Positions 32,939 to 35,405 are shown, numbered from the stretch's first letter. The stretch: DNA of 64,000 nt from an uncultured Candidatus Saccharibacteria bacterium (GCA_947302975.1 CAMYXA010000002.1:26627-90626); one strand, 5' to 3'. Made by a program: numbers and translations. Notes: generated by a model from the sequence alone, not told the origin.

Positions 32939-32970
32939 AAAAAGAGCTGCCCTGGTGGGCAGCCTTTTTT
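32938..32970. terminator. Bidirectional intrinsic terminator
   Basis: A-tract, GCTGCCC-tggt-GGGCAGC, T-tract. Confidence 0.75.
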
Positions 32971-33739
32971 ATAAAGTACTTCTTGATTTGGCCTTGTTTC
33001 GAAGAGAAGCTTCGACAACGCTAGAAAATGCTTTTCTATACGCCTCTCCGTCAGAAGAAAAACTTGAAAGTGGTGCTTTTGAGAATGCGCGAAGCAGGAA
33101 TCTTCCAACCTTATCGGGTCGGAAATTCGCATGTTTCGGATATTCTCCAGATCCGCGAGATGCGCCAGCTGCGTAATTCGTAAGCTTAGCTGCAACATCC
33201 GGATCCACAATCTTGTCACCAAGACTATAGACCACACCGTCAACCCTGTTTTTCTTGATACCTGCGTTCGTTGATGCAGCTTTATACTGCTTTGCGATCG
33301 CATAGATAGACAAGAACCAGCCATCCGGCTTAGTTCCGCCGAAAAGAGGCCAAAACCTGTGTTTCTTGAAGGGTTTCGATATGAACATGATGACACTCAT
33401 CATCAAACTAATAACCCCCCTGAAAATGCAAACTGCGGCATTTTTCCTGACTGAGTCCACACCGAGGTATGGACAAACGTAGTAGACATCCGTGTCTTCG
33501 TCGTCCGCAAGGATATTGCCAACCAAAGCCCCAAGCGATATGCAGATCAGAACCTTCTTTTCTGCATTATCCTCACGAATTTGATTCGCAAATTCTGCTG
33601 GATCCCAATCCTCGCCTGCACGAAGATTTTCGACCGGCCATTTGCCATAATTGTCAACGATCACGTCAACTAATGGCTGATAAAACTTCTGTTCCGTCCC
33701 AGCAAGAGCGCCAGGTATCAGATAAATCTTACCATTCAT
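32969..33739 (-). CDS. ORFan, probable alpha/beta hydrolase
   Basis: YLIPGA oxyanion-like strand, CISLG elbow, SLGDKIVDP acid, PKHANF His. Confidence 0.5.
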   Translation of the reverse strand: MNGKIYLIPGALAGTEQKFYQPLVDVIVDNYGKWPVENLRAGEDWDPAEFANQIREDNAEKKVLICISLGALVGNILADDEDTDVYYVCPYLGVDSVRKNAAVCIFRGVISLMMSVIMFISKPFKKHRFWPLFGGTKPDGWFLSIYAIAKQYKAASTNAGIKKNRVDGVVYSLGDKIVDPDVAAKLTNYAAGASRGSGEYPKHANFRPDKVGRFLLRAFSKAPLSSFSSDGEAYRKAFSSVVEASLRNKAKSRSTL

Positions 33740-33845
33740 AACATTCCCTCCATTTTAATGTGCAAATTTAGTTCTACCTTATATTATATCACAAAATGCC
33801 AAAAAAATCAATAGACACCCCTGATCAGGAGGGTCGAATTCGGTA

Positions 33846-33874
33846 TTGACAAATCGACGCTTATGCTTTATTAT
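33846..33874 (+). promoter_or_regulatory. Promoter TTGACA-17-TATTAT
   Basis: Near-consensus elements at 33846-33851 and 33869-33874. Confidence 0.7.
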
Positions 33875-33880
33875 AAACAT

Positions 33881-34036
33881 AAGCTGATACGCTTCACAGG
33901 GGTTCCACTGAATTATTTAGTGGAGTGTGGAGACTTACATTAAAAACAAAAACAGCGGATTAAAACAAAACAATGTGCCCCAAGGGTGGGCGCGCATCAG
34001 CGCGAAAAAGAGACAGACGCAAGTCGTCTCTTTTTT
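33881..34036 (+). ncRNA. Candidate ~155-nt structured small RNA of unknown family
   Basis: Own promoter, closing helix, two internal hairpins, A-rich repeats, GCAA-capped terminator. Confidence 0.5.
34005..34036 (+). terminator. Intrinsic terminator with GNRA loop
   Basis: AAAAAGAGAC-a-GAC-gcaa-GTC-GTCTCTTTTTT. Confidence 0.8.
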
Positions 34037-34052
34037 ATGTTATAATATAGGT

Positions 34053-35405
34053 ATGAGCAAACTAGAAGATATCGTAAGTTTATGTAAACGCCGTGGGTTT
34101 ATTTTCCCAGGCTCCGATGTTTATGGCGGCATGGCCGGCACTTGGGACTTCGGGCCTCTTGGCGTCTCGTTGAAGAAAAACATCATGGATGCATGGTGGA
34201 ATTACTTCGTCGAAAAACGCGACGACATGTATGGTGTCGACGCAGCCATCATTATGAATCCAAGAACTTGGGTCGCTTCTGGTCACACTGCAACTTTTGC
34301 CGATCCACTCGTTGAATGTAAAGAATGTAAATCTCGCTTCCGCGCCGACAAAATCGCAGACGGTATCTCCGAATCTGTTACTACTGAAGAATTCTTGGCC
34401 ACCCACACCAAGTGTCCAGTTTGTGGCAAAGAAAACTGGGGTCCAATCCGCAAGTTTAACATGATGTTCTCAACCCATGTTGGCGCCGTCCTTCCAGAAG
34501 ACACTCAGGATAATCCAGAGCTCGCCGCAAAAAACATTGCCTATCTTCGCCCAGAAACCGCACAAGGTATCTTCACTAACTACAAAAACGTTATCGATAC
34601 AATCTATCCAAGCCTGCCATTCGGTCTCGCCCAACAGGGAAAAGCCTTCCGTAACGAAATTTCTCCGCGCGACTTTATCCTTCGCGACCGTGAATGTTCG
34701 CAGATGGAGATCGAATACTTCGTACATCCAGATTCATGGGAAGGCGAGTTTGAAAAACTTCGCGCCCTCCAACATGACTTCCTCGAGAATGTTGTAAAAC
34801 TTCCAGCCGAGAATATCCACGAGCTAGAAGTTCCAGCCGAAGACCGCGCCCACTATTCTAAGCGCACCATCGACTTTATGTTTGATTATCCAAACGGCGA
34901 AGAAGAGTTGATGGGTCTTGCCTATCGCACCGATTTCGACCTCTCGAATATCCAACGCGAATCTGGCAAAAATATGGAATATCGCGATAAAAACACCGGC
35001 GAAACCTTCATTCCACACGTCATCGAGCCATCAATCGGCGTCGAGCGTCTCTTCCTCGCTATTCTTTCTACCGCCTACACTGAAGAAGAGAACGAAGGGA
35101 AAACCCGTATCCTCTTAAAGCTTCCTGAAAACCTTGCCCCATATCATTTCTGCGTTTCACCACTCCTTAAGAACAAACCAGAGCTCGTCGAGAAGGCTCG
35201 TGCCGTCTATGATATGCTCCGCGAGAAGTATGGCAATGTTACTTGGGACGATTCCGGCAACATTGGTAAGCGCTACATGAAACAAGACGAAATCGGAACT
35301 CCAAAATGCGTCGTTATTGACTTCGACACCTTAGAAGACGACACCGTAACCGTTCGCGACCGCGACACCACCAAGCAGACTCGCGTCAAGATTAGCGAAT
35401 TATAG
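34053..35405 (+). CDS. glyS: Glycyl-tRNA synthetase, alpha2 (homodimeric) type
   Basis: LCKRRGFIF, YLRPETAQGIF, FRNEISPR, HYSKRT, PHVIEPS motifs; start reassigned to 34053. Confidence 0.96.
   Translation: MSKLEDIVSLCKRRGFIFPGSDVYGGMAGTWDFGPLGVSLKKNIMDAWWNYFVEKRDDMYGVDAAIIMNPRTWVASGHTATFADPLVECKECKSRFRADKIADGISESVTTEEFLATHTKCPVCGKENWGPIRKFNMMFSTHVGAVLPEDTQDNPELAAKNIAYLRPETAQGIFTNYKNVIDTIYPSLPFGLAQQGKAFRNEISPRDFILRDRECSQMEIEYFVHPDSWEGEFEKLRALQHDFLENVVKLPAENIHELEVPAEDRAHYSKRTIDFMFDYPNGEEELMGLAYRTDFDLSNIQRESGKNMEYRDKNTGETFIPHVIEPSIGVERLFLAILSTAYTEEENEGKTRILLKLPENLAPYHFCVSPLLKNKPELVEKARAVYDMLREKYGNVTWDDSGNIGKRYMKQDEIGTPKCVVIDFDTLEDDTVTVRDRDTTKQTRVKISEL

Follow-up and report, generated by a model that had tools for sequence, protein, structure and literature searches.

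Chlorobi-1, Bacteroidales-1 and the raiA motif RNA are Rfam orphans encoded by stand-alone genes with a promoter and a terminator, each in one lineage, and they combine covarying helices with conserved unpaired nucleotides. CsrB and RsmZ, which bind CsrA, and CrcZ, whose A-rich AAnAAnAA motif binds Hfq/Crc, present repeated single-strand motifs on a structured scaffold. The cyanobacterial RNA Yfr1 is small, Hfq-independent and lineage-wide, with an invariant unpaired motif flanked by two hairpins. 6S RNA (~150–200 nt) is a housekeeping RNA with one copy per genome, in which a closing helix is combined with a two-stranded central bubble. The classical glyQS T-box leader (RF00230) has a glycyl-tRNA synthetase gene downstream and a terminator.

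The small RNA (sRNA) gene described here, from Candidatus Saccharibacteria, resembled each of these in part. It shared the listed features of the first group, but it is smaller than raiA, matched none of the 4227 models of Rfam 15, and carried an internal loop (GGGUGGGC) and a loop motif (AAAA[C/U]AAA[A/C]A) that are peculiar to it. Like CsrB, RsmZ and CrcZ, it is a stand-alone, probably abundant transcript that displays single-strand motifs, and it may work alike; however, CsrA and Hfq are absent here, only one or two motif copies are present, and its GGA motifs are confined to a genus-specific insert. With Yfr1 it has in common the small size, the independence of Hfq, the lineage-wide occurrence and an invariant unpaired motif between stems, whereas the motifs themselves are unrelated and the sRNA is built of two nested long-range helices and an internal loop. 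It is of housekeeping type like 6S RNA, with a closing helix, an internal loop and one copy per genome, but it is far shorter and its loop is one-sided. The likeness to the T-box comprised the glycyl-tRNA synthetase gene downstream (in the host genome only), a GGGUGG sequence and the terminator, but no Stem I features were recognizable by eye and the sRNA forms a separate transcription unit.

Saccharibacteria have tiny genomes (0.6–1 Mb) from which many functions were shed, and Hfq, CsrA and the signal recognition particle (SRP) system are absent. No description of such an RNA was found in the literature searched on small and structured RNAs of Saccharibacteria and Patescibacteria. New here are the core fold, the invariance of one side of its internal loop, the apical loop motif, the apparent limitation to one order, the ancestral site behind ligA, the association with an RRM protein and its loss in Candidatus Nanosyncoccus, and the explicit exclusion of known identities.

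An sRNA gene upstream of glyS

The window, a 64,000-nt stretch of an uncultured Candidatus Saccharibacteria genome (GCA_947302975.1, CAMYXA010000002.1:26627–90626), belongs to a 673-kb assembly of 18 contigs (91% complete) assigned to Candidatus Nanosyncoccus, whose source material is metagenome-assembled genomes from the guts of ruminants and other animals. The sRNA gene occupied positions 33846–34036 of the plus strand, on which all features lie unless marked otherwise, and consisted of a promoter, a folding RNA of ~156 nt and an intrinsic terminator. The promoter and terminator proposed in the first-pass annotation were both confirmed, and each feature it listed was found where its coordinates placed it. 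The sigma-70-type promoter (33846–33874) contained TTGACA (33846–33851), a 17-nt spacer and TATTAT (33869–33874), agreeing with the consensus at 11 of 12 positions. Transcription was predicted to start at ~33881, yielding an RNA of ~156 nt (33881–34036). The terminator (34004–34036) was a hairpin with a GCAA loop followed by U6 (T6 in the DNA). No credible coding potential was found between promoter and terminator, and the listed open reading frame (ORF) 33927–35405 was merely an in-frame upstream extension of glyS across the sRNA.

The 159 nt from position 33878 had a fold energy of −52.4 kcal/mol, compared with −32.8 ± 3.6 kcal/mol for dinucleotide shuffles (z = −5.5), none of 200 of which folded as well. 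In addition, 22 of the 24 genus genomes carried the element at 81–92% identity, so that it is more than a product of chance. We regard the existence of the gene together with its fold as close to certain.

The first-pass annotation had also noted that glyS has a promoter of its own, and this was borne out. An extended −10 box (TGtTATAAT, 34038–34046) was located outside the RNA, and the ATG start codon (34053–34055) followed 7 nt past it, which fits a leaderless transcript. The encoded protein (34053–35405) gave matches to the core domain of class II tRNA synthetases and to an anticodon-binding domain. The start was not preceded by a Shine–Dalgarno sequence, the T run of the sRNA terminator lay immediately 5' of the −10 box, and glyS appears to be leaderless from this arrangement. 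The neighbouring gene on the minus strand (start 33739) did possess a Shine–Dalgarno sequence (GGAGGG). This ORF (32969–33739, minus strand, 256 aa), located between obg and the sRNA gene, had no Pfam match and was not found at the equivalent position in other loci of the genus.

Occurrence and genomic context

In 20 aligned loci of the genus, the CTTGACA element, the 17-nt spacer and the TAnnAT box were all conserved, and the 111–128-nt core was nearly invariant. All 20 loci ended in a terminator hairpin and a U run, although the stem sequences differed. A covariance model built from the genus sequences alone (R1) matched 8 of 151 genomes of the order, a few distant homologs among them; it was too narrow and was superseded. 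The exact pattern GGGTGGGCGCGNANNAGC recovered more homologs, while the reversed control pattern recovered none. A second model (R2), made from 22 short-form sequences with helices P1 and P2 annotated, detected exactly one copy per genome in 92 of 151 sampled Saccharimonadales genomes, covering most families, and zero copies in 144 Patescibacteria genomes outside the order. Among the families in which it detected nothing were f4, f20, f24 and f30. Within this sampling, the sRNA is apparently restricted to the order Saccharimonadales. It is kept as a single copy in genomes of 0.6–1.5 Mb. The element in the window scored 146.6 bits with R1 and 38.9 bits with R2, and showed P1, P2, the GGGUGGGC loop, the A-rich motif, and its own promoter and terminator. 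The covariance model gives annotators a means of finding this gene, which present pipelines overlook.

The RNA measured 70–97 nt in most other genera and 70–121 nt across family members. The longer Nanosyncoccus form resulted from an inserted hairpin and a second A/C-rich tract. A TTGACA-type promoter preceded the sRNA in all family members inspected, distant families included. The 3' ends of the relatives inspected were either a separate terminator hairpin with a U run or a U run directly after P1.

Several side observations were made during these searches. In one genome of the genus (G001) the sRNA gene was divided over two contig ends (G001:C3:1–87 and G001:C2:1–80) with the break within the A-rich region, where the low complexity of the sequence probably interrupted the assembly. 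Copies were also present on two contigs labelled Acidobacteriota (L252, CAWEPR010000005.1; 61.8 bits) and Bifidobacteriaceae (L216, CAZOIK010000258.1; 40.6 bits), which are probably misbinned Saccharibacteria contigs. The strings CATAAGC or GCTTATG(C/G) recurred between the −35 and −10 elements of the sRNA promoters (L029–L075, e.g. L073) and were found in some neighbouring promoters as well; they may be a general feature of Saccharimonadales promoters.

The genes around the sRNA changed from locus to locus. glyS adjoined it in the host genome only; the other 19 of the 20 genus loci had no glyS within 1.5 kb. Their neighbour was obg, in all four relative orientations (upstream, downstream, convergent and divergent), and this variation at the obg site (L002–L020) suggests that the spot was locally inverted or rearranged more than once. 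Elsewhere in the order, the sRNA gene was most often directly preceded, on its own strand, by ligA, which encodes NAD-dependent DNA ligase (29 of 44 loci across the order); the genes downstream varied. Judging from this gene order, the site downstream of ligA is the ancestral position of the sRNA, and Nanosyncoccus has lost the linkage. The sRNA promoter abutted the ligA stop codon, and tight packing alone may explain the persistence of the linkage. In several families (L025, L061, L063, L065), tRNA genes were located ~40–260 nt from the sRNA gene.

Because promoter, core and terminator were conserved together while neighbours and orientation changed, the sRNA was considered a stand-alone unit. 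This agrees with the first-pass annotation, which had called the element a new sRNA that need not be a glyS leader; on the sequence signals and the comparative evidence it is an independent transcription unit and no leader of glyS. A leader or attenuator acting on glyS in cis through terminator read-through, T-box-like or other, has a negligible probability. It would account for the position directly 5' of glyS in the host genome and for the terminator at the end of the RNA, and the GGGUGG sequence resembles the start of the T-box sequence. However, glyS was adjacent in just one of 20 genus loci, the orientation to neighbouring genes varied, the ancestral site is behind ligA, and a separate, leaderless promoter serves glyS. 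No T-box (RF00230) was matched at the gathering threshold, at E-values up to 10, or in ten homologous loci, and relatives showed no linkage to aminoacyl-tRNA synthetase genes. The glycine riboswitch (RF00504) likewise had no covariance-model match at the gathering threshold or at E-values up to 10, and no synthetase linkage in relatives. The degenerate attenuator that the first-pass annotation had offered as a further reading found no support, since the downstream gene and even the orientation differ among relatives and a promoter of its own precedes glyS.

Core fold, apical loop and alternative structures

The fold of the family was an extended hairpin consisting of a 10-bp closing helix (P1), an asymmetric internal loop, a second helix of 4–10 bp (P2) and an apical loop. 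In the window, P1 was formed by GCUGAUACGC at 33883–33892 (DNA GCTGATACGC) and GCGCAUCAGC at 33992–34001 (DNA GCGCATCAGC), the closing helix that had already been recognized from the sequence. The 5' side of the internal loop (J5) was UUCACA (33893–33898), and its 3' side (J3), between P2 and P1, was GGGUGGGC (33984–33991). P2 paired GGGGU (33899–33903) with its long-range partner GCCCC (33977–33981).

Support for both helices came from an alignment of 44 sequences from many families (A4). This alignment was fitted to the model and hence favours the modelled structure; in it, standard pairing held for 92.9% of cells, and 14 of the 15 pairs in the model had changed on both sides. None of 500 shuffles reached such values, and slid controls were at most 62% paired. 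In P1, 9 of 10 pairs were changed on both sides and 93% of cells were paired, with covariation extending through the innermost pairs (GCGC/GCGC was replaced by GCGU/ACGC or GUAC/GUAC in some families). All five modelled pairs of P2 were changed on both sides. In a model-free helix search, the best helix began 2–7 nt past P1, its 3' strand abutted GGGUGGGC, and its mean length was 6.6 bp, compared with 5.0 bp when the 3' segment was shuffled. P2 had 48 different sequences among 116 distinct family sequences, such as GGGGU/GCCCC, GCGGCG/CGCCGC, GGGAC/GUCCC, GGCUCUUU/AAAGAGCC and AGAGGUUCUU/AAGAACCUCU. Within the genus, the change from GGGG to AGGG was matched by one from CCCC to CCCU (L012, L019, L022).

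While P1, P2 and J5 varied, J3 was exactly GGGUGGGC in 111 of the 116 distinct sequences, and its GGUG was present in all 44 sequences of A4. Across the order, J5 was 2–7 nt long, variable and G-poor, although it was invariant inside the genus.

The apical loop comprised 24–73 nt with 49% A and 13% G. The motif AAAA[C/U]AAA[A/C]A was found in 43 of 44 aligned members, and 19 of 44 had a second copy. In the window, the two unpaired A/C-rich repeats of the first-pass annotation were both present: a single-stranded tract at 33942–33954 carrying the motif, and a second tract, AAAACAAAACAA, at 33962–33973. The commonest type of loop opened with C(G/U)UG and closed with CACC, giving, in many lineages, a C·C mismatch and 3–4 further pairs beyond P2. 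In several lineages, a copy of the motif was located in the loop of a small hairpin (stems AGAU/AUCU, AGGU/ACCU or GACA/UGUC).

Four other pairings were considered and set aside. The small GCCC/GGGC hairpin of the first-pass annotation could be drawn in the window, but it was not conserved in relatives, was impossible in families in which the 3' strand of P2 is AAGAGCC, and was replaced by P2, in which the CCCC pairs with GGGG(U) at 33899–33903. A CGCGC/GCGCG hairpin (33991–34004) was not conserved either. An ACAUU/AAUGU helix near the A-rich region was limited to some members of the genus. Instead of pairing with J3, the CAC of the loop segment CACC(C) better fitted, in most families, a 3–4-bp extension of P2 past the C·C mismatch.

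The larger hairpin of the first-pass annotation was present (33893–33932). It contained the genus-specific insert (33904–33932), a hairpin with the strands UCCACUGA and UUAGUGGA and a variable loop, followed by UGUGGAG and containing two GGAG motifs. The insert was absent from the 70–97-nt forms of other genera. Among 107 distinct Nanosyncoccus sequences, its loop varied in sequence and length and its stems were fixed. J5 in the genus is predicted to be able to pair with UGUGGA(G) at 33926–33932 or, as UUCAC, with GUGGG of J3; covariation does not separate these two pairings because the segments are invariant in the 107 sequences.

Many members were predicted to be able to form a local 5' hairpin (H1), in which the inner GCGC of P1 and J5 pair with a UGCGC-like segment past the 5' strand of P2, so that it overlaps P1 and P2; some could also form a 3' hairpin (H2). 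Among homologs, the predicted minimum-energy folds alternated between the P1+P2 and the H1/H2 architectures. The Nanosyncoccus equivalent of H1 was CUUCACA/UGUGGAG with the inserted hairpin, which would form a pseudoknot if P2 is present alongside. H1 was missing in several families (L060, L063, L073, L074) and H2 was weak in family f34; P1+P2 was therefore taken as the universal fold.

These alternations bear on a quite improbable reading of the sRNA as a trans-acting ligand sensor, in which the internal loop and its G–C pairs would form a pocket and binding would shift the balance between P1+P2 and H1/H2. The pattern of invariant unpaired nucleotides beside covarying helices is aptamer-like, the alternation of folds would suit a switch, and in some species P1 and the U run themselves constitute the terminator. 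The families without H1 and with a weak H2, however, show that such a switch would not be universal; moreover, there is no conserved downstream gene to control, and no Rfam riboswitch matched even at E-values up to 10.

Excluded identities and candidate functions

The Rfam scan proposed in the first-pass annotation gave no family match for the window at gathering thresholds. At E-values up to 10, the region 33700–34120 yielded only terminator-like noise (STnc250, isrF), and ten short-form homologous loci yielded only chance matches far under gathering scores, e.g. Thr_leader. Judged by these searches, the sRNA is a member of no described family. The lack of fit to T-box, glycine riboswitch, SRP RNA, tmRNA and 6S RNA that had been noted by eye also held, as none of the models matched.

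For SRP RNA (RF00169/RF01854), no domain IV match was found in the window, the genome or 40 relatives. Searches for the Ffh M domain and the SRP-type GTPase domain of Ffh and FtsY (SRP_SPB, SRP54) were negative in the host (G000) and in a further 150 genomes from the phylum, and no ORF with a DTAGR motif was found in G000. That many CPR bacteria have lost SRP subunits has been published (PMC8080830). tmRNA (RF00023) was considered because SmpB was encoded in the host (C3:15552–15926) and tmRNA was missing, and it was rejected because relatives have a normal tmRNA elsewhere: an ordinary tmRNA of ~355 nt occurred at another locus in 28 of 31 genomes searched (host included), and ARAGORN and Rfam detected no tmRNA features at the sRNA. 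5S rRNA (RF00001) was considered because an alternative fold has three-way-junction topology; there was no match, and relatives had a normal 5S gene elsewhere. Both tmRNA and 5S rRNA were absent from the host assembly, and since relatives have both, these host genes are most likely unassembled. RNase P RNA was present elsewhere in the host genome. Decoys of Hfq or CsrA were excluded as well, as PF17209 and PF02599 were absent from five genomes, four of which are 98–99% complete.

6S RNA (RF00013) had no model match, and the sRNA is too short and its internal loop one-sided. It is very unlikely that the sRNA binds RNA polymerase or the ribosome as a miniature analogue of 6S RNA, or otherwise stands in for a housekeeping RNA in this way. 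Such a role would be in keeping with the lack of a detectable 6S RNA in the host genome, the single-copy, order-wide occurrence and a promoter of strong constitutive appearance. With a length of mostly 70–97 nt, 15–20 bp in total and a one-sided loop, however, the RNA cannot mimic an open promoter, and the roles of SRP RNA, tmRNA, 5S rRNA and RNase P are excluded or already filled.

A single copy retained across the order in such reduced genomes indicates that the sRNA is probably important to its hosts, and the near-invariance of the 8-nt loop strengthens this case. We tentatively favour the hypothesis that it acts in trans as a protein-binding RNA, with a likelihood somewhat short of even. 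Purine-rich asymmetric internal loops clamped by G–C pairs are typical protein-recognition sites. The hypothesis is favoured because of this character of the loop, the single-strand A/C motifs and the one copy kept in tiny genomes. The sRNA would serve either as the scaffold of a ribonucleoprotein or as a decoy that titrates a protein. Specific recognition would occur at the G-rich internal loop, which is invariant and has invariant G–C pairs on its flanks, and the displayed A/C-rich motifs would be a platform for a single-stranded-RNA-binding protein. A protein-binding decoy, one of the possibilities raised in the first-pass annotation, would be the most plausible mechanism.

Some observations do not sit easily with protein binding. 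The H1 alternative hairpin, which overlaps P1 and P2, is left unexplained by it. According to the predicted folds, most of J3 may be paired to J5 in the genus (UUCAC/GUGGG), which would count against protein binding. The invariance of the loop would be explained just as well if it formed a pocket for a ligand, made a tertiary contact or paired with a short sequence.

Base pairing as a riboregulator is possible but on balance unlikely. The seed would then be the A/C motif or GGGUGGGC, and its target sites in mRNAs would be rich in U/G or similar to GCCCACCC. In this reading P1 and P2 would be no more than a stabilizing scaffold, and the RNA would resemble Yfr1 or RsaE/RoxS in being independent of Hfq. 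The conserved unpaired motifs are flanked by covarying helices, several lineages expose the motif in the loop of a small hairpin, promoter and terminator are those of a classical sRNA, and without Hfq in these genomes a seed would need to be structurally exposed. However, a sequence complementary to the A-rich motif is U-rich and carries little information, and J3 lies inside a stable helix, where a seed would be poorly placed. GCCCACCC occurred only six times elsewhere in the genome, no excess over chance; when the genome was searched for sequences complementary to J3 or to the loop motif, nothing rose above chance, and no extended complementarity to other sites was found. A seed that is invariant throughout the order would also require a target conserved just as strictly, but the search revealed no such target.

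Improbable, though of wider consequence, is a role as RNA subunit or sensor of a housekeeping machine specific to Saccharimonadales. The sRNA might be a bistable sensor acting in trans, with the invariant GGGUGGGC as its pocket for a metabolite or a tRNA 3' end, or the obligatory partner in a ribonucleoprotein that evolved within this order, whose members are ultra-small epibionts. Either, if true, would add a functional class to the bacterial RNAs, beyond regulatory sRNA. The question of function is now approachable by experiment in the few strains that are cultivable and naturally transformable.

For the favoured protein-binding role, the other known sRNA-binding hubs, Hfq and CsrA, were missing from the five genomes. 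A protein with an RRM domain is a plausible candidate partner that would bind the single-stranded motifs, as far as gene content and gene order can suggest. It has ~100 aa, an RNP1 motif (KGFGFVEF) and an Arg/Gly-rich tail, and 141 of the 151 Saccharimonadales genomes encoded an RRM_1 protein. The RRM gene was arranged head-to-head with the sRNA, in the order ligA(+) RRM(−) sRNA(+), in several f1 genera and in one genome of family f29 (G114) (L037, L038, L040, L041, L045 and L193–L196; e.g. L193:2126–2380, minus strand). This adjacency may be mere inherited gene order; in most families the RRM gene was distant from the sRNA gene. The protein was found in none of the seven Nanosyncoccus genomes searched, host included, though these kept the sRNA, so it is not the sole or obligatory partner. 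In Nanosyncoccus, the lack of the RRM gene coincided, as a correlation only, with the relocation of the sRNA and the gain of the hairpin with two GGAG motifs.
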